This document shows positions 10,595-21,573 of a DNA stretch of 24,000 bases, in pieces. Under the pieces are notes generated by a model, which ran no database searches, was not told where the DNA came from, and saw nothing but the letters and a program-made list of their open reading frames with translations. Origin of the DNA: an uncultured Anaeroplasmataceae bacterium (GTDB lineage: Bacteria; Bacillota_I; Bacilli_A; Acholeplasmatales; Anaeroplasmataceae); contig CALVBA010000017.1 of assembly GCA_944325695.1 (NCBI GenBank), forward strand, positions 1 through 24,000. The letters run 5' to 3'. Position numbers and translations under genes: made by a program. Position 1 is the stretch's first letter. Every line of letters begins with the position of its first letter.

Positions 10595-11471
10595 AAAACT
10601 CCTCTAAGTCACGCTTAATATTTTCAATAGTCTTTTCAATATTTGCTAAATCAACTTGATAAAAATGTGTATCCATCTGATTTTTAAACCATGTTATTTG
10701 TCTTTTAGCTAAATGTCTAGTATTTTTTTTAATTTCTTCTATTGCTGTTTCAAGGGATATTTCGTCTTTAAAATATGGAATAAATTCTTTATATCCGATT
10801 GCATTAATGATAATTCCATCGTCATAAAGTCCTTTTACTTCTTCTAATAATCCTTCTTTAAGCATTAAATCAACACGTTTATTAATTCTATTGTATAAAA
10901 CATCTCTATCTAAGTCCAGATAAATGATATAAGTATCATATAACAAAATGTCTTTTTTATTTTTATTTGATATATGATCATTGTTTAAAGCCATTTCTAA
11001 AGCTCTAAGTACCCTTTTTCGGTTATTTGGGTGTAATTTTTCACACGCTTTAGAATCATATTTTTCTAGCATTTCAAATAATTCTTGATTGCTACAAAAT
11101 GTAAATTTAGAAGCAAATTCAGCATCTCTTTTACTATCACTAAATTCATAATCATACAGTGCTGATTTAATATATAACCCTGTTCCTCCTACGATGAAAG
11201 GACGAGCAACTTCATCAATTATTGCCCGACAATGACGTTGAAAACATGCTGTTGAATACTCTTCAGTTGGATCTAATAGATCAATTAAATGATGTATTAC
11301 GCCTTCTTTTTCTTCTTCTTTGATTTTAGCACTTCCTATATCTAGGCGTTTATATACACTAACACTATCACCTGAAATGATTTCAGCGTTAAAATATTTA
11401 GCTAATTCAATTGATATTTTAGTTTTTCCACTTGCGGTTGGTCCGCATATTACTACAACTTTTTTCATCAC
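10584..11471 (-). CDS. miaA: tRNA dimethylallyltransferase
   Basis: P-loop VVVICGPTASGKT, then GDSVSVYKRLDIGSAKI, HHLID and GGTGLYI. The position immediately downstream of mutL is conserved in many bacteria. Confidence 0.95.
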   Translation of the reverse strand: MMKKVVVICGPTASGKTKISIELAKYFNAEIISGDSVSVYKRLDIGSAKIKEEEKEGVIHHLIDLLDPTEEYSTACFQRHCRAIIDEVARPFIVGGTGLYIKSALYDYEFSDSKRDAEFASKFTFCSNQELFEMLEKYDSKACEKLHPNNRKRVLRALEMALNNDHISNKNKKDILLYDTYIIYLDLDRDVLYNRINKRVDLMLKEGLLEEVKGLYDDGIIINAIGYKEFIPYFKDEISLETAIEEIKKNTRHLAKRQITWFKNQMDTHFYQVDLANIEKTIENIKRDLEEFYAK

Positions 11472-13282
11472 ATTACCCTCTTAAATAACTTTTCAATTTC
11501 ATATGTTGTCAACTTAACGATAGTTGGTCTACCGTGTGGACAAGTATAAGGATTATCACATTTTTTAAGATTATTTATTAAAGTGTTTATTTCTTCTAAG
11601 TTTATTTTGTGATTTGCTTTAATTGATTTTTTACACGCAATCATTTTGGCTAAGGAATCACGAAGTATCATCATATCTACGCTATTTTTTTCAATCATAT
11701 AATAAATAATTTTCTTAACAATCTCTTCAACATTATTATTTTTAATATAAGTCGGAATACTACGAATAAAGAAACTATTTAAGCCTGACTCTTCCAAATG
11801 AAAACCGATTTTAGTTAATTTATCTTTATTTTCTAGTAAAAAAAGAAGTTCATTTTTGGTACAGTTGACATTAATAGGGATTAGTAAATCAATTGTTTGA
11901 ACACTTTCTTTTTCAAAGAAATGATAATAGTACTCATAATTAATACGCTCTTCAGCTGCATGCTGATCAACTAAAAATAATCCCTCTTCATTTTGAAATA
12001 ATAAATAGGTTCCGTGAAGTGTACCAATATATTCAAAAGAAGGAAATGTCTTTCTATAATCTTCTTTTTTAGTATTAGAAATGTTTGGTGTTTGTTTTAT
12101 TTTTTCTTCATTTTTTTCAAAACTATACTCTTTTTTCACATCATATAAATGGTTTTTTTGGTATGTTGGTTCATCATATTTTTCTAAATTAAAATTTAAT
12201 GTTTGGGTTTCATATTTTGTTTCTAAATTAACTTTTTCATTAGTGTAGCTATCAACTTTACTACCGATATTGTAGTTTGGAATCATCTCTGTTTCTTTTA
12301 AAGCATCTATCGTTGCATTAGTTATTGTATATTTAATTACGTCTTCCTCACTAAACTTGATTTCTAATTTTGATGGATGCACATTCACATCAATCAATAG
12401 TGGATCAATTTTAATATCAATCACAGCAATTGGATAACGAAATTGTGGTAAATATGTTTTATATCCATCAATCAAAGCATTAATTAAATTTGTATTTCTA
12501 ACATAACGTTTATTACAAATTAGAATAATATCATTTTTACGTGATTTATTAATGATACTTTTAACTAAATATAATTTAATTTCGACACCTGGACAAAAAG
12601 CTTCTTTATATAAAAGATTTTTAGCAGCCTCAATGCCATAAATATTCGCTATTAAGCTTTGCATATTCCCTTGTCCATTACTTTGAAATAAAACTTTCTG
12701 ATTATTAATTAACTTAAAGCGAATATCTTTATTAGCTAATGCTAGTTTATCAATTAATTCTGTTATGTATGCCAATTCTGTATTCAAAGACTTAATATAT
12801 TTTAGGCGAGCTGGTGTATTAAAAAATAAATTAGAAACCTTAATATGCGTTCCTTTATTCATACTAACAGATTCTTCATTAATCATTTTACCAGCTTTAT
12901 ATGTAACTTTATAGCCATTTGTTAAACCGTTATTTGTTGATAATTCAAAAAGCGATACTGATGCAATTGAAGGAATAGCTTCTCCTCTAAATCCTAATGA
13001 ATTAATTCGATATAAATCATGTTCGTTTTTAATCTTTGATGTGGCATGTCTTTTAAAAGCCATCAAAGCATCATCTTGTGACATTCCATCACCATCATCT
13101 AGAACATCGATCATCGTCATTCCACTATCTTGTAAAGTAATTGTTATATTTTTTGCATTTGCATCAATACTATTTTCAACCAACTCTTTAACAACACTAT
13201 ATGGTTTTTCGACAACTTCACCAGCAGCAATCATATTTGCAAGATGATTATCCAGTTGAATAATTTTTCCCATTTTAATCAT
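11468..13282 (-). CDS. mutL: DNA mismatch repair protein MutL (endonuclease-type)
   Basis: GHKL ATPase N-terminus IAAGEVVEKPYSVVKELVENSIDA, plus GFRGEA. The C-terminal endonuclease motifs are DQHAAEERINYE, ACKKSIKAN and CPHGRPT. The start is either ATG 13282 (an ATGA overlap with the mutS stop) or ATG 13273 (8 nt after AGGA). Confidence 0.95.
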   Translation of the reverse strand: MIKMGKIIQLDNHLANMIAAGEVVEKPYSVVKELVENSIDANAKNITITLQDSGMTMIDVLDDGDGMSQDDALMAFKRHATSKIKNEHDLYRINSLGFRGEAIPSIASVSLFELSTNNGLTNGYKVTYKAGKMINEESVSMNKGTHIKVSNLFFNTPARLKYIKSLNTELAYITELIDKLALANKDIRFKLINNQKVLFQSNGQGNMQSLIANIYGIEAAKNLLYKEAFCPGVEIKLYLVKSIINKSRKNDIILICNKRYVRNTNLINALIDGYKTYLPQFRYPIAVIDIKIDPLLIDVNVHPSKLEIKFSEEDVIKYTITNATIDALKETEMIPNYNIGSKVDSYTNEKVNLETKYETQTLNFNLEKYDEPTYQKNHLYDVKKEYSFEKNEEKIKQTPNISNTKKEDYRKTFPSFEYIGTLHGTYLLFQNEEGLFLVDQHAAEERINYEYYYHFFEKESVQTIDLLIPINVNCTKNELLFLLENKDKLTKIGFHLEESGLNSFFIRSIPTYIKNNNVEEIVKKIIYYMIEKNSVDMMILRDSLAKMIACKKSIKANHKINLEEINTLINNLKKCDNPYTCPHGRPTIVKLTTYEIEKLFKRVM

Positions 13283-15846
13283 CCTTTAATTAATTTTTTT
13301 TGTAAATTAGATAAATATGTCATACATTCAAGGGGTGTCATTTCATTTATATCTAGATCTTTAATTTCTTCTATTAACGGATCTTTAGCATCTTGTTTTA
13401 TTTCATTTATCTCATCAAAATTAAATAAATCTAAATTAATATTTTCTTTGACACTTGTACTTTCAAAATGATTTAAAATATCAGTTGCACGCCTAATTAA
13501 TGGTTTTGGTAATTTAGCAAGTGATGCAACGTTAATTCCGTATGACTTATCTTGGGGTCCATCTAAGACTTTATGTAAGAAAACAACTCCATCTTTCTCT
13601 TCTTTAGCTTCAACATGAATATTTTTTAAATGTGAAAGCTTATTTTCAAGAGCTGTCAGCTCATGATAATGTGTAGAAAAAATAGTTGTTGTACCTAATT
13701 TTTCATGGATATATTCAATTATTGCCTGAGCTAAAGCCATACCATCATATGTCGCTGTACCACGACCTATTTCATCTAATAAAATCAAAGAATTTTTTGT
13801 AGCATTAGTAAGAGCGTAATTTGTTTCAAGCATTTCAACCATGAATGTTGATTGTCCACTAACTAAATCATCACTCGCACCAATGCGCGTAAAAATCTTA
13901 TCATAAAGTGGTAGTTCCGCTTTAGAAGCTGGAACAAAACATCCTATTTGTGCCATGATAATCGTTAAAGCTAATTGTCTCATATAAGTCGATTTACCAC
14001 TCATATTAGGCCCTGTAATAAGTAATAAATTATATGAGTTAATGTAAATATCATTGGCAACGTAATTATTTTCTAAAATCTTTTCAATAACTGGATGACG
14101 ACCTTCAATTACAGTTAGATTACGGTTTAATGTAAAAGTAGGACGTACATAATTATTTTCTTCTGAAACATCAGCAAATGAACATAAAACATCGATTAAA
14201 GCGACAATGTTTGATAATTCTTGAAGTTGTTTGATGAATTTTTTACTAAATTCACGAATTTCTACAAATAATTCATATTCAAGCTTTAATATTTTATCTG
14301 AAGCACCTAAAACAAGATTTTCGTGTTCTTTTAATTCCTTAGTAATAAATCTTTCACTATTAGCTAATGTTTGTCGTCTTTCATATCCAAATTCATCCTT
14401 AATTAAAGCATTATTAGCTTTTGATATTTCTATATAATATCCAAAAACGCGATTATATCCTACCTTTAAATTTTTAATTTGTGTTTTTTCTCGTTCTTGC
14501 ATTTCATAGTTAATTAACCAATCTTTTCCATTTGTTGTAACATCTAAAAGTTGATCTAAAACATCATTATATCCTGATTTAATCATTCCACCTTCTTTAA
14601 TAGTTAAAGGAGGATTATCGACTAAAGCTTTCGATAAAATTGTGGTTAAATCTTCCATTAGATCAATTTCATCTGACAATGAATTTAATGTATCATCATT
14701 TAATAATCGAACTAAACGTTTTAATTCTGGCATATTTAAAAGAGACCGACGTAATTGGACCAAATCTTTAGCATTTGCATTACCACATGATATTCTTCCA
14801 ACAATTCGTTCTAAATCATAAACTGTTTTTAAGGTTTCTTTTATATCATATCGAATAATATAATTATTCATTAACGCACTTACGGCATCTAATCGTTGAT
14901 TGATTTCTTTATAATCAAGTAATGGACGTTGTAGCATTTTATATAGATATCGACTACCTAGAGCCGTACTACATTTATCCAATAACCATAATAATGATCC
15001 ATTTTTTTGATTATTACGTAATGTTTCTGTTAATTCTAGATTTCTTCTTGAATGTACATCAATCTGTAAAAAGCGATTTGCTTCATATATTTCAACTTTT
15101 TTTAGGTGAGTTAATTCTTGTCGTTGTGTATTTAAAATATAATTAATTAATAATCCAATCCCTTTGTAATAATTTTTATTACTTATATCTTCCATTAAAT
15201 AATTTAAATAATCTGGTATTTCTATTACATCATAATATGATACACAAATTTGGAAGTTTTGTAATAATTTATTCGCAAGATCTTTATTAAAAGAACTTAA
15301 TACAATAATTTCACGACATTTAAGTGATAATATTTCATTAATTAATAAATCATCAGTACTGATTTCTGTTAAATAGATTTCTCCTGTTGAAACATCTGCA
15401 TAGCTAAAAATATATTTTTTATTATCTTCAATTACACTAATTAAGTAGTTATTGATTTTATCGTCTAATCCTTGTTCGATTAAAGTTCCTGGGGTAATTA
15501 AACGAACTACATCACGTTTAACAATACCCTTAACACTTTTTGGATCTTCAACTTGTTCTACTATCGCAATTTTATATCCTTTTGCGACTAATTTTTCAAT
15601 ATATGTATTACAAGCATGAAACGGAATTCCACACATTGGAACACGTTCTGATGCTCCAGCATCTCTTCCTGTTAAAGCAATTTCTAACTCCCTTGAAGCA
15701 ACTAAAGCATCATTAAAAAACATTTCATAAAAATCACCTAATCGAAAAAAGACTATAGTATCTTTATAGTCTTTTTTTATATCTAGGTATTGTTGCATCA
15801 TAGGGGTATATTGCGATTTATCAATTTCTTTATATTCTAATTTCAT
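13279..15846 (-). CDS. mutS: DNA mismatch repair protein MutS
   Basis: N-terminal mismatch-binding region YTPMMQQYLDIK...FYEMF, Walker A GPNMSGKSTY, LDEIGRGTATYDG and FSTHYHELT. The track start at 15855 is a GTG inside the SD AAGGGTG. ATG 15849 or 15846 is more likely. Confidence 0.96.
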   Translation of the reverse strand: MKLEYKEIDKSQYTPMMQQYLDIKKDYKDTIVFFRLGDFYEMFFNDALVASRELEIALTGRDAGASERVPMCGIPFHACNTYIEKLVAKGYKIAIVEQVEDPKSVKGIVKRDVVRLITPGTLIEQGLDDKINNYLISVIEDNKKYIFSYADVSTGEIYLTEISTDDLLINEILSLKCREIIVLSSFNKDLANKLLQNFQICVSYYDVIEIPDYLNYLMEDISNKNYYKGIGLLINYILNTQRQELTHLKKVEIYEANRFLQIDVHSRRNLELTETLRNNQKNGSLLWLLDKCSTALGSRYLYKMLQRPLLDYKEINQRLDAVSALMNNYIIRYDIKETLKTVYDLERIVGRISCGNANAKDLVQLRRSLLNMPELKRLVRLLNDDTLNSLSDEIDLMEDLTTILSKALVDNPPLTIKEGGMIKSGYNDVLDQLLDVTTNGKDWLINYEMQEREKTQIKNLKVGYNRVFGYYIEISKANNALIKDEFGYERRQTLANSERFITKELKEHENLVLGASDKILKLEYELFVEIREFSKKFIKQLQELSNIVALIDVLCSFADVSEENNYVRPTFTLNRNLTVIEGRHPVIEKILENNYVANDIYINSYNLLLITGPNMSGKSTYMRQLALTIIMAQIGCFVPASKAELPLYDKIFTRIGASDDLVSGQSTFMVEMLETNYALTNATKNSLILLDEIGRGTATYDGMALAQAIIEYIHEKLGTTTIFSTHYHELTALENKLSHLKNIHVEAKEEKDGVVFLHKVLDGPQDKSYGINVASLAKLPKPLIRRATDILNHFESTSVKENINLDLFNFDEINEIKQDAKDPLIEEIKDLDINEMTPLECMTYLSNLQKKLIKG

Positions 15847-15868
15847 CATATACACCCTTAATTTCTAT

Positions 15869-16747
15869 TTATTTTTTAAAAATGAAATTCCATGTGTTAC
15901 CAACCCATTCATAGAATTCACCAATCCATTTTAAAATAGGCTTTGTAAAGTAATTTCCTTGTCCTTTAACATTGTCATAGAAGAAATAGAAAACACCTAA
16001 GGCTACAGCTAAAATCAATAATATAATCAATAAAGTTATGATAATTTTACCAATTACACTTAAAAATCCTCTTCTTTTTTTATGTCCTACTTGTTGTGGG
16101 ACTAAAAGATCGTTATTTTCAACATATTCTGGATTAATATAATTTAGTTGATCTTTTTTGTTAGCTTTACGCATTTTCTTTGCCTTTTTTTTCTCTTCTT
16201 TAGCTAATAGTTTAACTTCACGACGTGAAAGTTTCTTTACTTCCCCATTTTCATCTTGAATGTGACTAACTTGATTATTATAATCATTTAACGCATTTAA
16301 AGCAGCTCTTTCAGCGATTTGCTGTTTTGTTAGTGGAGCTTGTGGTTGATAAAACTCGTTTACTCCATCATATTGCGGATATGGATTATAATATTCCCCT
16401 GGTATCATATGTTGTTGCGGTATAAAGTATGGGTGAGGATTTACTCCATTATATTGTGGGTTTTGTTGAGACATTACATTTGGATATGGGTAATAATATG
16501 GGTAAGGCTGTGGTTGCTGAGGAAGTCCTTGACAATTTGGACATCCTTGCGGATTTTGTTGTTGATACATTGGTTGTTGTGGGTAAGGCTGTTGTTGATA
16601 CACTGGGTAAGGGATTACAAACGGTGGTACCATGTATGGAATATGTGGTCTACGTTGTACCCTAGTTGGACGTTCTTGTCCTTTTTTTTCTGTTTTATTT
16701 TCATTTGTTAATTCTTTTTTATCATTAATAACTTTGTTATCTAACAT
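15869..16747 (-). CDS. Hypothetical tail-anchored membrane protein with a P/Q/Y-rich low-complexity N-terminal region
   Basis: An intact ORF 13 nt upstream of mutS. Its parts are a P/Q/Y-rich region of about 110 aa (PYPVYQQQPYPQQPMYQQQNPQGCPNCQGLPQQPQPYPYYYPYP...), a Lys-rich charged helix (EVKLLAKEEKKKAKKMRKANKK), HKKRRG followed by one TM segment (FLSVIGKIIITLLIILLILAVALGVFYFFY), and a 35-aa aromatic tail. I prefer the start at ATG 16747, because ATG 16759 abuts the SD. Confidence 0.65.
   Translation of the reverse strand: MLDNKVINDKKELTNENKTEKKGQERPTRVQRRPHIPYMVPPFVIPYPVYQQQPYPQQPMYQQQNPQGCPNCQGLPQQPQPYPYYYPYPNVMSQQNPQYNGVNPHPYFIPQQHMIPGEYYNPYPQYDGVNEFYQPQAPLTKQQIAERAALNALNDYNNQVSHIQDENGEVKKLSRREVKLLAKEEKKKAKKMRKANKKDQLNYINPEYVENNDLLVPQQVGHKKRRGFLSVIGKIIITLLIILLILAVALGVFYFFYDNVKGQGNYFTKPILKWIGEFYEWVGNTWNFIFKK
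16325..16650 (-). repeat. Low-complexity P/Q/Y-rich coding tract (locally GC-enriched, degenerate QQPYP-type repeats)
   Basis: Reiterated ccaca/caaca/ggtaaggctgt(g/t)gttg units, for example at 16501-16516 and 16582-16597. The composition differs clearly from the flanking AT-rich DNA. The tract produces two long spurious plus-strand ORFs. Confidence 0.8.
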
Positions 16748-16762
16748 CAAAACACACATCCT

Positions 16763-19015
16763 TTACTTTTTATTTTTTTTCAACTTTTTTAATTCTTTCC
16801 TATATAACTTCTCGTATAATTTACGTTCTTTCTTTGATAAATTATTTATATCAAATGCAATTTCACTTGTAGAAGATTCATCTTCCTCAGTATTTTCTTG
16901 GTCATTTTCCTCTACTTTTTCACCATAATAATTATCATAGTATTGATTATAAAGCTCGTCCATATAATCATCATATTCGCGTTGTTCATCTAGTTCTTCT
17001 TTGATTTCTGACATACTTTGCTTTATGTTATCCATTTCTGATTTGTTTAACAAAATAAAATCATCCATTGTTTTTTTGCTATCTAAAATAGCTTGCTCAA
17101 TACTTCTTGTTATTACGAAATGATCGAATTTATTTGTAGCATTTTCTAAGCGATTTGATAAATTAATGATTTGTTCTTTCATGTTTCTATTAATTTCATC
17201 TGTTAATTGCCGATATGTATCCATATCATCTTGAATTTTCTTCATATTTTGTGCAAACATTTCATTAATATATCCATAAACTTGCTGTAGTTTATTATTA
17301 GTAACTTCTTCAATTATCTTATTTACTTCTTCTAAAGAAACACCTTTTTCAGCTTTTTCTAATGTATTAATACGGTCTTCTAAATGTGCATGCATTTCAA
17401 CTGTAGCAAGACTTCCGATTTCTTCATTTTGTATTGTATTTATATTAGAATTTATTTTATCGCAAGTCTCATCAATATACTGATATAGATTATTTGTAAT
17501 TTGATCTAATTCTTCACTAAAATCCCCAATTTTTTCATCAATATATCCCTTTAGGGTATCTGTTTCATTATTGTTTTCTGTAATTGATTGAATCTTAGCA
17601 TCAACATAATCATGAATATCTGATAAGGTCATAACTTCAAAATCATTATTTTCAACTGAAACAACTTCGCTTTTTTCTGATATATTTTCGATTGTTTCTT
17701 CTAATAGATTAATCTTTTCTGTAATTTCATTTAGTATGTTATTATCTACTATTTTTTCACTGTGATCAAGTGTACTTAAGCTATTTTGAAGTCCATTAAC
17801 TTTATCGACAAGTTCATTATAAAATTCTACACCTTCATCATCACTTGCTTGTAATTGTGCAATTTTGTCATCGATATCATTTAATTTAGTTGTTACATTA
17901 TTATCCAAATTTTCATTTTGAATAAATTGGATTTTTTCCTCTAAAAAAGCAATTTTTTTAATTAATTCATTAGAATCTGTAATATTTTCATTTGTCTTTT
18001 CTTCTTTTAATGATGTAATCTCAGTTTCTAAATTAGTGATTTTATTTTGTAATTGTTCAATAATATTTGTTATTTCATCTTTATAAACAATTTCCCCTTG
18101 TTCTACTTCATCTTCAATATTTTCTTCTTGTGGCTCTTCTTCAATATAATTAAATTGACGAGGAAAATATTGTTGTACATCATCGACAATATAATCGAAT
18201 GCTTGTTCTGACCATAATTGACTTTCAAAACGACGATTTAAAATATATTCAACTAATTCTTCTTTTTTCAATTCAATTGAAGCTTTGATATTGTTATCTT
18301 TGCAAAACCGTTGTAACGATACAATTGACCCTTTTTTTAGTTTTTCAACAATTGCATCATCTAATTTACAAACTTTTTCCAATTCTTCAAAAATAATTTG
18401 TAATAATTCTTCTTTTTTTAGACGTTTTGGAACGTTGATTTTATATTTATTGTTTCCCAAATCACGGATATCAACTAATGTAGATGAAGCGGCCAATACT
18501 CTTCTAAAAGTAGCTATACCTAATCCATCAAATTCTTCTTTTTCATCCACAAAAATAGATAATAATCTTTGATTATACGATATAATATCTTCTTTATCGC
18601 CAATTCGACTGTTAAATATACTAATTATGTCATTATCTGTTAGACCAATTTGGGTTGCATTTAAAAAAATGCTGTACCATAAATTTTTCTTATATTCAAG
18701 AACAAGCTTACTGTCGGTATAAATATTAAATAAAGATTCTAATTGATACTCACTAAATTCATTAAACCAATTTAAGCGATATAGAAACTCATCACTAAAT
18801 CCGTCAGATCTTAATACTCTACTTTTTTCAACTAAATCTCTAAATGTTAATCTTAATGCATTAATTCGGATTTTTCGTGGTAATTTGATGTTTTTCTTGT
18901 TAAAAAAATCGACAATATGCGTTGAACTTATGATAGCAATTTTTTCAATTTCATCAGATAAAATATAATTTTTGCCATTTAACACAATTAAGTTGTCGCT
19001 TACCGAAATTTGCAT
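16763..19015 (-). CDS. Hypothetical large acidic coiled-coil protein (about 750 aa)
   Basis: Intact ORF. The start is ATG 19015, 7 nt after GGAGG (ATGTATGGAGGTGTTTCTATG). It has a globular N-terminal region of about 300 aa containing two helices of the KKEELLQIIFE / KKEELVEYILN type. Then comes about 400 aa of heptad-like E/N/I/K-rich sequence (NLETEITSLKEEK..., LLEETIENISEK...), an acidic Y-rich stretch, and a basic tail KKERKLYEKLYRKELKKLKKNKK. I recognise no enzymatic motif. Confidence 0.7.
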   Translation of the reverse strand: MQISVSDNLIVLNGKNYILSDEIEKIAIISSTHIVDFFNKKNIKLPRKIRINALRLTFRDLVEKSRVLRSDGFSDEFLYRLNWFNEFSEYQLESLFNIYTDSKLVLEYKKNLWYSIFLNATQIGLTDNDIISIFNSRIGDKEDIISYNQRLLSIFVDEKEEFDGLGIATFRRVLAASSTLVDIRDLGNNKYKINVPKRLKKEELLQIIFEELEKVCKLDDAIVEKLKKGSIVSLQRFCKDNNIKASIELKKEELVEYILNRRFESQLWSEQAFDYIVDDVQQYFPRQFNYIEEEPQEENIEDEVEQGEIVYKDEITNIIEQLQNKITNLETEITSLKEEKTNENITDSNELIKKIAFLEEKIQFIQNENLDNNVTTKLNDIDDKIAQLQASDDEGVEFYNELVDKVNGLQNSLSTLDHSEKIVDNNILNEITEKINLLEETIENISEKSEVVSVENNDFEVMTLSDIHDYVDAKIQSITENNNETDTLKGYIDEKIGDFSEELDQITNNLYQYIDETCDKINSNINTIQNEEIGSLATVEMHAHLEDRINTLEKAEKGVSLEEVNKIIEEVTNNKLQQVYGYINEMFAQNMKKIQDDMDTYRQLTDEINRNMKEQIINLSNRLENATNKFDHFVITRSIEQAILDSKKTMDDFILLNKSEMDNIKQSMSEIKEELDEQREYDDYMDELYNQYYDNYYGEKVEENDQENTEEDESSTSEIAFDINNLSKKERKLYEKLYRKELKKLKKNKK

Positions 19016-19051
19016 AGAAACACCTCCATACATATTATTGATTTCTATTAT

Positions 19052-19080
19052 ATAATATAATAAAATGTTGTTTTTGACAA
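19052..19080 (-). promoter_or_regulatory. SigmaA-type promoter in front of the coiled-coil gene (TTGTCA, 17-nt spacer, TATTAT)
   Basis: The minus strand reads TTGTCAaaaacaacattttattaTATTAT. It lies about 35 nt upstream of ATG 19015 and downstream of the cotE terminator. Confidence 0.45.
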
Positions 19081-19202
19081 GCATTTTAACGATACAAAAA
19101 CATAATAAATTGCATTATAACGCTTTTTTATGCATATTATTATATCTTAAACTAGTTCAATGTTATATATGTATATTATACTACAAAATATCAAAAAAGT
19201 GA

Positions 19203-19231
19203 TATAAAAAAACTGGATTTTCATCCAATTT
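19203..19231 (-). terminator. Rho-independent terminator of cotE
   Basis: The minus strand reads AAATTGGATgaaaATCCAGTTTTTTTATATC. It is a 9-bp stem (one G-U pair) with a GAAA loop and a U-run, 14 nt after the cotE stop. Confidence 0.7.
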
Positions 19232-19244
19232 CTTTAAAAAAAGT

Positions 19245-19754
19245 TTAAGTATTTAAAAATAATTCTTCTACATTAGCGTCAATTTCATCATCAATTGAAT
19301 AAACATCTGACGTATTAAAAACCGTAACTTGCATTTTGGTTTCTCCTATAATTTCGGCAAGTATTTCAAATTGAATATCTAATTCTAGATGTTCATTTAA
19401 AATTTTTGCATTTAAACATGTTGGATGTTTAATAATTTTAGCTAAGATATCATCTGTGTTTTCTAAATATTCTTTAACAATTTGTTTTGTTTTAATATCT
19501 TTTATATATTTTACTTTATGACGCAAGATATCTGTTTTTTCATTGTTATTGCTTGAATACCATACATTTATTTCAAAATTACCGGAAATTTTAACCATTT
19601 CATCAACTCTTGTAGCTTCAAATTCGTGATTGATAATCCAAACTCCTAAAATCGAGTATGGAATAATATCGAAAGGAACTTCTTCTTTTAAATTAAAAAC
19701 TTTTTTTCCTTTAGCAACAATTGCTTTGGTAACAATTTCTCTTATCTCATTCAC
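19245..19754 (-). CDS. cotE: Spore coat morphogenetic protein CotE
   Basis: Colinear with B. subtilis CotE as I recall it: REIVTKAIVAKGKK (REIITKAVVAKGRK), SILGVWIINHEF (SILGGWIINHKY), INVWYS, LAEIIGETK (LAEVVGETK) and an acidic C-terminus. It starts at GTG, 5 nt after AAAGGAGGA. The position between ymcA and mutS is syntenic. Confidence 0.9.
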   Translation of the reverse strand: MNEIREIVTKAIVAKGKKVFNLKEEVPFDIIPYSILGVWIINHEFEATRVDEMVKISGNFEINVWYSSNNNEKTDILRHKVKYIKDIKTKQIVKEYLENTDDILAKIIKHPTCLNAKILNEHLELDIQFEILAEIIGETKMQVTVFNTSDVYSIDDEIDANVEELFLNT

Positions 19755-19800: not shown

Positions 19801-19830
19801 GAAAAAATGTAGGTCTATAATAGATCTACA
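19800..19830 (-). terminator. Rho-independent terminator after ymcA-like gene (overlaps its last codons)
   Basis: The minus strand reads TGTAGATCTAttaTAGACCTACATTTTTTC. It is a 10-bp stem with one mismatch, a 3-nt loop and a U6 run. The stop codon TAG (19815-19817) lies inside the stem. Confidence 0.7.
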
Positions 19831-20135
19831 TTAATTTCTTGTTCGATTATATTACATATATTATTTAAAAGCTCTAATACTTCTTCGAAAGCATTAAAAA
19901 AAGAAACTACCGATGGCTTAGAAAAATATTGATCATAAATAATATTATATTCTTCTTGAAATTTTTCCACATCTTTTTTAAAATACTTAGCATTAACTAA
20001 TGCTTTCTGGGCCTTTTTTACGTCTTTTAACAAGTTTTGATGTTCGTCATTTAAAACAATTGCCTCTAATCGCTTATATTCTTTAACAGGCTCATAATCA
20101 GCAACCATTTCCAATAGACTTTCTAAATTATTCAA
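19815..20135 (-). CDS. YmcA/YheA-family protein (RicA-like)
   Basis: 106 aa and all-helical. The segment EYKRLEAIVLNDEHQNLLKDVKKAQKALVNAKYFKKDVE parallels B. subtilis YmcA (FFKRAEAQINENDK...IKALQKQAVNLKHYEKHEA). Its position between miaB (ymcB) and cotE is syntenic. It overlaps the miaB 3' end by 8 nt. Confidence 0.65.
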   Translation of the reverse strand: MNNLESLLEMVADYEPVKEYKRLEAIVLNDEHQNLLKDVKKAQKALVNAKYFKKDVEKFQEEYNIIYDQYFSKPSVVSFFNAFEEVLELLNNICNIIEQEINVDLL

Positions 20136-21573
20136 CTAACTCACCTTTAACAAACCACGTTTTAGCCTCAGTAATTCGTACTTTAACTAATGATCCAATT
20201 AAAGATTTATCGCCTACAAAGTTAACTAATTTAAAATGTTCGCTATATCCACAAACCATTCCAGGTTCTTTAGCTTCTTCATCAACTAGTACTTCTACAA
20301 CTTTTCCAACGAAACGTTCATTTCCTTCTTTATAAAAACGATTTGTATGTTCAACTAGTTCATTTAATCGAGCATGTTTTTCTTCTTCCGTTAATAAATT
20401 TTCATATTTACTAGCTGGTGTTCCTTCACGAGGAGAATAAATAAATGTAAATGCCCCATCAAATTTAACTTCATCAACAAGTTCAAGTGTATCTTGGAAT
20501 TGTTCTTGTGTTTCTCCAGGGAAAGCAACAATAATATCAGTTGTAATAGCAATTCCAGGAATTGCTTTTTTTAATTTTTCAATTAAAACTAAATATTCAT
20601 CTTTTGTATATTTACGATTCATTCGTTTTAAAACTTCGTCATTTCCAGATTGAACAGGTAAATGAATATGTGGCATTACTGATTTACATGTTGCCATAGC
20701 TTGAATTGTTTTATCATCTAAATCTCGTGGATGACTTGTAGTATATCGAATACGTTTGATTCCTGTTTTATCTAAATCAACTAATAAATCACCAAACGTA
20801 TATCCATTATCTAAATCTTTACCATAGGCATTAACATTTTGTCCTAATAAAGTAACCTCAACATATCCTTCAGAAACTAAACTCTTAACTTCATTTATTA
20901 CATCGTCTTTATCACGGCTACGTTCTTTACCACGAGTATATGGCACGATACAATATGTACAAAATTCATCACATCCGTACATAATATTTACCCATGCACG
21001 ATGTTTATTAGCACGTTTTTTTGGCATATTTTCAACAATCTTACCTTCAGTAGATAAAACTTCAATTACCTTATCTTTTGACATATAAGTATCATAAATA
21101 ATTCTTGGCAGATTATTAATATTATGCGTACCAAATACAATATCAATTTGATGATATTTTTCTAATAACGTATTAACGACATTCTCTTCTTGTGGCATAC
21201 ATCCACAAATTCCAATAATCATATCCGGATTATTACGTTTGGCTTGTTTTAAACGTCCTAAAACTCCCCAAATTTTATTTTCGGCATTTTCACGAACAGC
21301 ACAAGTATTAATAATAACAACATCATTTTCATCAGTTGTAGTTCCTTTTTCATATCCTAGGCTTTCTAAAATACCGCTTATTATTTCACTATCTGCTTCA
21401 TTTCCCTGGCATCCATAAGTTAAAACGGAATATGTTTTTCCATTACCAATGTTTTCATATTTGTTTTCTAAATTATATCTAACTGTTTCAATTTCTTTTT
21501 CAATTCTTTTACGAGCCTTTTTTAAATCAGGCATAAAATATTTCTCTAAGTTTTTGTCTAATTTTTTTTTCAT
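20128..21573 (-). CDS. miaB: tRNA-2-methylthio-N6-dimethylallyladenosine synthase (radical SAM methylthiotransferase)
   Basis: N-terminal UPF0004 domain (TYGCQGNEADSE, NTCAVRENAE), the radical-SAM motif CDEFCTYCIVPYTRG, and a C-terminal TRAM domain. Confidence 0.95.
   Translation of the reverse strand: MKKKLDKNLEKYFMPDLKKARKRIEKEIETVRYNLENKYENIGNGKTYSVLTYGCQGNEADSEIISGILESLGYEKGTTTDENDVVIINTCAVRENAENKIWGVLGRLKQAKRNNPDMIIGICGCMPQEENVVNTLLEKYHQIDIVFGTHNINNLPRIIYDTYMSKDKVIEVLSTEGKIVENMPKKRANKHRAWVNIMYGCDEFCTYCIVPYTRGKERSRDKDDVINEVKSLVSEGYVEVTLLGQNVNAYGKDLDNGYTFGDLLVDLDKTGIKRIRYTTSHPRDLDDKTIQAMATCKSVMPHIHLPVQSGNDEVLKRMNRKYTKDEYLVLIEKLKKAIPGIAITTDIIVAFPGETQEQFQDTLELVDEVKFDGAFTFIYSPREGTPASKYENLLTEEEKHARLNELVEHTNRFYKEGNERFVGKVVEVLVDEEAKEPGMVCGYSEHFKLVNFVGDKSLIGSLVKVRITEAKTWFVKGELVE

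Follow-up and report, generated by a model that had tools for sequence, protein, structure and literature searches.

What fills the 3.2 kb between cotE and mutS in a gene block that otherwise follows the order known from Bacillus subtilis? The stretch of DNA analysed here, referred to as the window, comprises 24,000 nucleotides (positions 1 to 24,000 of contig CALVBA010000017.1) from an uncultured Anaeroplasmataceae bacterium. A preliminary description had noted two open reading frames (ORFs) between these genes, here called A and B, and had read them as a tightly coupled two-component module. It overlooked that A and B share the same reading frame: translation of positions 15869-19015 meets exactly one internal stop, a TAA. 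Comparison of the sequences makes it most probable that A and B are a single lineage-specific gene cut by a species-specific fission, and that the ancestral product was an intact tail-anchored protein. The parts concerned are listed below; all feature coordinates refer to the - strand of the window.

16763-19015, - strand: ORF A, 750 aa plus stop, corresponding to the N-terminal 72% of the presumed ancestral gene; product predicted to be soluble and cytoplasmic
16763-16765, - strand: in-frame TAA dividing the gene, the sole stop within 15869-19015 in this frame
15869-16747, - strand: ORF B, 292 aa plus stop, starting at ATG 16747; the C-terminal 28% of the presumed ancestral gene, a putative tail-anchored remnant
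16755-16764, - strand: Shine–Dalgarno (SD) sequence of ORF B, AAAGGATGTG, overlapping the stop codon of A; duplex with the anti-SD of -9.4 kcal/mol
18215-19015, - strand: conserved N-terminal domain (N-domain; residues 1-267 of A), the signature of the family, found by profile in 340 representatives
16838-18214, - strand: acidic, predicted helical spacer of A (residues 268-726), net charge -75
16766-16837, - strand: Lys/Arg-rich C-terminus of A (residues 727-750), 13 K+R in 24 residues
16328-16651, - strand: low-complexity stretch of B rich in P, Q and Y (residues 33-140), 59% P+Q+Y
15872-16148, - strand: family-type anchor module of B, with HKKRR, a transmembrane (TM) helix and a 35-aa aromatic tail; matches the C-terminal profile of the family

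The relatives argue for a single gene. A word-indexed search with A returned 14 matches, all confined to its first ~270 residues. When a profile of the N-domain (A2) was searched against 1.84 billion proteins, with representatives taken at 50% identity, 340 representatives of ~200 to 2550 aa total length were obtained, and in nearly all matches listed the domain lies at or near the N-terminus. The window N-domain matches this profile with E=1.0e-103. Three homologue contexts have just one ORF, of 586-731 aa, after ymcA or cotE and before mutS. Its product begins with the N-domain and continues through a spacer that is acidic and of low complexity and a K/R stretch to a C-terminal TM helix, behind which there is only a short tail; this is the layout of A and B concatenated. 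A scan of one genome per species gave 36 loci, distributed over Acholeplasmataceae, Acholeplasmatales, Anaeroplasmataceae and metagenome-assembled genomes (MAGs) of Erysipelotrichales; the related loci number 40 in total. In all 40 this place is taken by one ORF of 384-798 aa, and a pair of the A/B type occurs in none. The cultured carriers are Haploplasma modicum (ATCC 29102), Peloplasma aerotolerans and 'Tenericutes bacterium MO-XQ'. Compared with this family, found in Acholeplasmatales, Anaeroplasmataceae and related MAGs and recognized by a homologous N-domain, by its location after ymcA/cotE and before mutS and by an identical arrangement of the parts, the window gene differs in being cut by the TAA, so that N-domain and anchor are not on one polypeptide. 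Its spacer is also unusually long (~780 codons in all) and includes a P/Q/Y stretch unseen in the others.

Among 5.8 billion proteins the sole homologue of ORF B is B itself, and the P/Q/Y-rich stretch has no counterpart in the homologues aligned. A profile of 123 C-termini, taken from family members outside the window species, aligns to residues 200-290 of B with E=2.9e-6 among 1284 ORFs, and among the ORFs of the window it matches B alone. The part of B thus recovered contains its single predicted TM helix (~residues 228-257, nt 15977-16066), and the sequence of B has what is expected of a tail-anchored protein: a C-terminal TM helix, positive charges preceding it and no N-terminal signal peptide. 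The preliminary description had already called B P/Q/Y-rich and tail-anchored and A acidic, and both characterizations were borne out, A having a pI (isoelectric point) of 4.5. In the family, the TM helix lies within the last 90 residues in 120 of the 149 representatives examined, with a median tail of 37 aa and ~4 K/R among the 15 residues that lead into the helix.

The TAA sits in a lysine-rich stretch and is followed by AGG ATG TGT GTT TTG ATG. One might suspect an error of sequencing or assembly in a gene that is in fact intact, since an A-rich run (AAAAAAAATAAAAAGTAA), an error-prone context, precedes the stop. Yet the sequence of the junction does not vary between independent assemblies of several studies, nor between the window and five loci of different sample origin. 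At 90% clustering A is represented by 16 sequence variants and B by 13, every gene call of the species is split, and the full-length calls always measure 750 (once 748) and 292 aa. The commonest variant of A is present in several projects, with 24 contigs read and 49 blocks of the collection containing it according to the index. With the split fixed in the species over no fewer than 24 contigs examined, an assembly error is excluded, and the common frame of both ORFs rules out a homopolymer indel as the cause; the chance that the stop is an artefact is accordingly negligible. We consider it very improbable that ribosomes still produce the full-length protein by reading through or recoding the TAA. 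The shared frame would allow it, as would the distance from the stop to the first ATG, counted here as three sense codons, but this genome uses TAA as its standard stop, translation table 11 gives normal readings for the neighbouring genes (a change of the genetic code was rejected on the same ground), and scans of the window for tRNAs and Rfam elements gave no match, hence no suppressor tRNA. We know of no bacterial reassignment of TAA.

A premature stop inside an otherwise single conserved gene could also mean that a nonsense mutation has inactivated it and that A, B or both are decaying. ORF B lends itself to this explanation, its C-terminus being the lowest-scoring of the family (23.7 bits versus 25-65) and its polymorphisms in six strains being two non-synonymous and none synonymous, compared to none non-synonymous and four synonymous in A; with ~10 single-nucleotide polymorphisms in 14 kb, however, pN/pS over these strains has no power. 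We still hold a pseudogene to be unlikely. The N-domain of A scores at the family median (283.9 versus 281.8 bits, with a profile built without the window sequence) and retains 15 of the 17 columns that are at least 85% conserved, the remaining two being conservative changes; by these sequence measures it is undegraded. A neutral ORF of 292 codons at 26% GC should gain stops fast, the chance that random sequence of this composition stays free of them being, by our estimate, ~4e-12. B further has a good SD, within the top 1.4% of the 654 ATGs on the - strand and ahead of those of mutS, mutL and miaA in duplex strength, and functional-looking family variants without TM helix exist. The same SD, the 15-nt spacing that permits translational coupling and the intactness of both ORFs in all strains could equally be claimed for a genuine two-component module, a soluble scaffold and a membrane anchor assembling non-covalently, all the more as the halves could still associate after a fission. 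To such a module we give little credit: the relatives all carry the fused ORF and none the pair, so that co-occurrence and adjacency as a pair, whose absence the preliminary description had named as refuting its view, were lacking, B is without separate homologue, nothing but an in-frame TAA lies between the two halves, no interaction surface is evident and the cut falls within a low-complexity spacer. A-B is therefore neither a conserved pair nor, probably, a dead gene, and the supposed new two-gene system gives way to a simpler and better-supported picture, the species-specific fission of one gene. No further split member was found among the loci lacking a TM helix (L015, L019, L031, L040 and P0076), none of which continues in frame into an anchor ORF.

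According to the fission model, the ancestral protein had the parts that are seen intact in the relatives: a conserved 267-aa N-domain ending in putative tandem helix-extended-helix (HeH) motifs rich in invariant Lys/Arg, then a spacer that varies freely and is mostly acidic, a stretch of Lys/Arg next to the membrane, a single TM helix at the C-terminal end and a tail of ~40 aa. Its gene was almost certainly co-transcribed with the adjoining mutS-mutL. The single in-frame TAA then left A as N-domain plus spacer, now predicted to be soluble, and B as more spacer plus anchor. B would be translated separately from its own SD overlapping the stop of A and persist as a translated remnant of uncertain use, while the head would be cut loose from the membrane in the window species. 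The released head probably still works, since natural TM-less family variants exist. Such members, found directly upstream of mutS in some lineages, imply that a head without TM anchor is viable and that the anchor is dispensable there. One TM-less subfamily (L016, L022, L024, L039; P0064-P0066, P0076, P0088), still directly upstream of mutS, has a conserved end, 'FPF..KVSKK..(basic)..PVPV', which may be an alternative localization module. Other variations of the anchor occur. In P0152, P0153 and P0156 the TM helix is located at ~residue 450-500 and is followed by 860-1285 residues without Pfam match, which implies a large, presumably extracellular part. At L040:2914-4014 (Acholeplasmatales) a second ORF, located upstream of the N-domain gene, matches the anchor profile with E=4e-10; in this locus mutS is absent downstream.

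The start of ORF A deserves a comment. As longest ORF it covers 16763-19084 and encodes 773 aa. ATG 19015, giving the 750 aa of the earlier description, is preceded by GGAGG at 19023-19027, 7 nt upstream, with an SD duplex of -13.1 kcal/mol, compared to only +0.7 for the alternative ATG 19084. The N-terminus beginning at ATG 19015 also aligns with the homologue N-termini, and this start is the likely one on sequence grounds.

As expected from the preliminary description, neither ORF could be assigned to a known family: Pfam, NCBIfam, PADLOC and PHROGs searches gave nothing above threshold for A or B, and there was no usable match in the PDB either. An origin from a defence system or phage was rejected, given the lack of PADLOC and PHROGs matches. 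The literature searches likewise yielded no description of the family, for which the source names read just 'hypothetical protein'. What, then, could the family do? The last 100 residues of the N-domain appear to consist of two tandem HeH motifs.

18371-18523, - strand: putative HeH motif 1 (residues ~165-215; STLVDIRDLG..VPKRLKKEELLQII); in homologues Rho_N scores above the gathering threshold here
18230-18364, - strand: putative HeH motif 2 (residues ~218-262; SIVSLQRFCKDNNIKASIELKKEELVEYIL), recognized by hhalign against motif 1, with a weak Rho_N match here

The two motifs align with each other in hhalign with a probability of 90.5% (E=1.4e-6) and follow the pattern S.L..LR..(G/A)K...I.....LKKEEL(I/L)..I; the helices of motif 1 are predicted at 167-177, 180-190 and 201-214. 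In four of eight diverse homologues Rho_N exceeds the Pfam gathering score at aligned positions (P0002, P0007, P0089 and P0102; 26.6-40.4 bits), and weak HeH and SAP matches were also present among the eight. Most of the invariant basic residues fall in the HeH motifs (R184, K190, R198, K200, K201, R236, K239 and K251). The likeness to Rho_N, HeH and SAP (PF07498, PF12949, PF02037) thus consists in the two tandem motifs and in the homologues that pass the Rho_N gathering score; the difference is that the window protein remains below the threshold and that the motifs are embedded in a larger domain of 267 aa. This domain is confidently modelled by AF2 (predicted local distance difference test score, pLDDT, 89; predicted template modelling score, pTM, 0.80). 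For full-length A, a single-sequence model yielded just long helices of low confidence (pLDDT 41). A beta-clamp-binding motif was considered in the invariant Q91-L92 of 'QLESLF', which resembles QLxLF, and rejected, as it lies inside the confidently folded core helix 89-99.

Taken with the anchor, these features would fit a membrane tether in which the spacer sets the distance of the head from the membrane and the head binds nucleic acid or a partner. Lack of a signal peptide, together with the positive-inside rule, predicts a cytoplasmic location for N-domain and spacer. The spacers differ fully between lineages, being acidic or Ala-rich, K-rich, or composed of Flg_new repeats, and residues 268-726 of A are unalignable with those of the homologues, which suggests that spacer length and flexibility outweigh sequence. 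As the most economical model we tentatively propose that the family is a membrane tether presenting a possibly nucleic-acid-binding head and co-expressed with MutS and MutL, a possibility that we rate clearly below an even chance. The guess of a membrane-tethering role in the preliminary description is compatible with this for the inferred ancestral single protein.

In 36 of the 40 loci the next gene downstream is mutS; the median distance is 24 nt, and in 35 of these 36 it does not exceed 42 nt. cotE adjoins the family gene in just seven of the 40; the family is therefore associated with mutS and not with sporulation. With the window cotE as BLAST query, no cotE was found in the Acholeplasmataceae loci nor at the locus of Haploplasma modicum. 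The spore-envelope role envisaged in the preliminary description lacks support here, the family being equally conserved in loci without detectable cotE, including that of the mollicute H. modicum, and a spore-specific role appears unlikely from these gene contexts. The seven loci with cotE beside the family gene are L001, a pig-gut metagenome locus that also has spoVS, and L005, L006, L010, L017, L021 and L027, which are MAGs labelled Anaeroplasmataceae, Anaeroplasmatales or Erysipelotrichales.

Several points weigh against the picture drawn here. The conserved adjacency to mutS could be inherited gene order instead of a functional link. The N-domain model has no structural neighbour in the PDB or BFVD (best Foldseek E=0.79), which leaves a short motif as the basis for proposing that it binds nucleic acid. 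The PDB was also searched by sequence, with the N-domain as well as with the profile of either HeH motif, and nothing meaningful came up. The window protein itself reaches just 12.2 bits on Rho_N (residues 249-287 of the 773-aa ORF), compared to a cut-off of 24.9. Some family spacers, those of P0089 (residues ~300-1000), P0003 and P0076 (L046:4001-5926), contain Listeria-Bacteroides (Flg_new) repeats in up to eight copies. Such repeats are usually extracellular, whereas the predicted location of the family spacer is the cytoplasm. As for the fate of the halves, the within-species diversity of ~0.1% makes selection on A or B after the split unmeasurable.

Proteins of similar build are known outside this group. 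In the eukaryotic LEM/HeH proteins of the inner nuclear membrane (Heh1/Src1, Heh2, MAN1, LEM2) and in the plastid nucleoid anchors PEND and MFP1, an N-terminal HeH-type or DNA-binding head is joined to a membrane anchor through a long linker that is disordered or forms a coiled coil. The likeness of the family to these proteins is one of architecture only, with no homology detectable beyond the short HeH motif, and the family is bacterial and has a single C-terminal TM helix. E. coli ZipA, anchored at its N-terminus, consists of a TM helix, a charged region, a P/Q-rich linker and a globular head; by analogy it resembles the family in joining a TM anchor to a globular cytoplasmic head through a flexible, charged, P/Q-rich linker, with opposite polarity, no sequence similarity and a different head domain. 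It is conceivable, if improbable, that the family is a bacterial counterpart of the HeH/LEM tethers, its tandem-HeH head holding chromosomal or newly replicated DNA at the cytoplasmic membrane by means of an adjustable spacer and working with the co-transcribed MutS-MutL. If this were true, the window species would offer a natural experiment, its head having been cut from the anchor. DNA binding by the tandem HeH head would make the family a novel kind of bacterial tether between membrane and nucleoid, with a link to mismatch repair. Irrespective of function, the analysis reveals an undescribed protein family of ~340 clusters at 50% identity, with an N-domain whose predicted fold is confidently modelled and without PDB neighbour, and with a gene that has stayed first in the mutS-mutL operon in Acholeplasmatales, Anaeroplasmataceae and related lineages. 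Its natural variants, split, TM-less or with swapped spacers, provide ready-made constructs for probing the purpose of the anchor.

The surroundings of the gene are as follows. The window has a G+C content of ~26% and all genes of the examined part are on the - strand, in the order miaB, ymcA, cotE, ORF A, ORF B, mutS, mutL.

20128-21573, - strand: miaB
19815-20135, - strand: ymcA, Com_YlbF match
19245-19754, - strand: cotE, upstream neighbour of ORF A (Pfam CotE, E=7.6e-42)
19198-19236, - strand: hairpin followed by a U-run 3′ of cotE; RNA fold of -14 kcal/mol, z=-3.7, none of 200 shuffles as stable
19052-19080, - strand: sigma-A-like promoter candidate TTGTCA-17-TATTAT, 10 of 12 positions matching
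13279-15855, - strand: mutS, directly downstream of ORF B (Pfam MutS_I-V for the same gene in near-identical loci)
11468-13282, - strand: mutL (Pfam DNA_mis_repair and MutL_C for the same gene in near-identical loci)

The order rny-ymdB-spoVS-miaB-ymcA-cotE-A-B-mutS-mutL-miaA of near-identical loci matches that of the window. The B. subtilis-like arrangement recognized in the preliminary description is thus confirmed, through Pfam for cotE and ymcA and through these loci for the order as a whole, and the 3.2 kb between cotE and mutS are supported as a lineage-specific addition to a Bacillus-like miaB-ymcA-cotE-mutS-mutL block. Of the spacings given earlier, the 15 nt from A to B stand, while the distance from B to mutS is 13 or up to 22 nt according to the choice of the mutS start; in either case A and B are close enough to mutS for co-transcription, as had been proposed. 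The hairpin after cotE likely is an intrinsic terminator, in agreement with its first description. It has few G-C pairs and is unlisted on the - strand by a consensus terminator scan. The sigma-A-like promoter fared less well: the 10/12 match was found again, but promoter-like sites are no commoner in this AT-rich region than in shuffled sequences (38 versus 31.2+/-5.7 expected) and the promoter is therefore unproven.

A few minor observations concern the same region. The start of ymcA is ambiguous (20108-20135): TTG 20135 overlaps miaB and gives 106 aa, and the gene callers on near-identical contigs use an ATG giving 97 aa. On the + strand, three antisense ORFs of 78-123 aa (16340-16928) run over B and the end of A; most likely they are by-products of the P/Q/Y codon bias, which leaves few stops on the opposite strand, and not genes. 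Dozens of independent assemblies of the window species break at ~29.7 kb around this block (L041-L045, contigs of 29670-29876), which implies repeats at both of its ends. In one locus of the same species (L044:12982-12984, sample ERZ24773558), codon 414 of mutL is changed from GAA to TAA and the gene is called as 413 plus 109 aa, which may represent a naturally occurring mutator allele within a population that is otherwise near-clonal.

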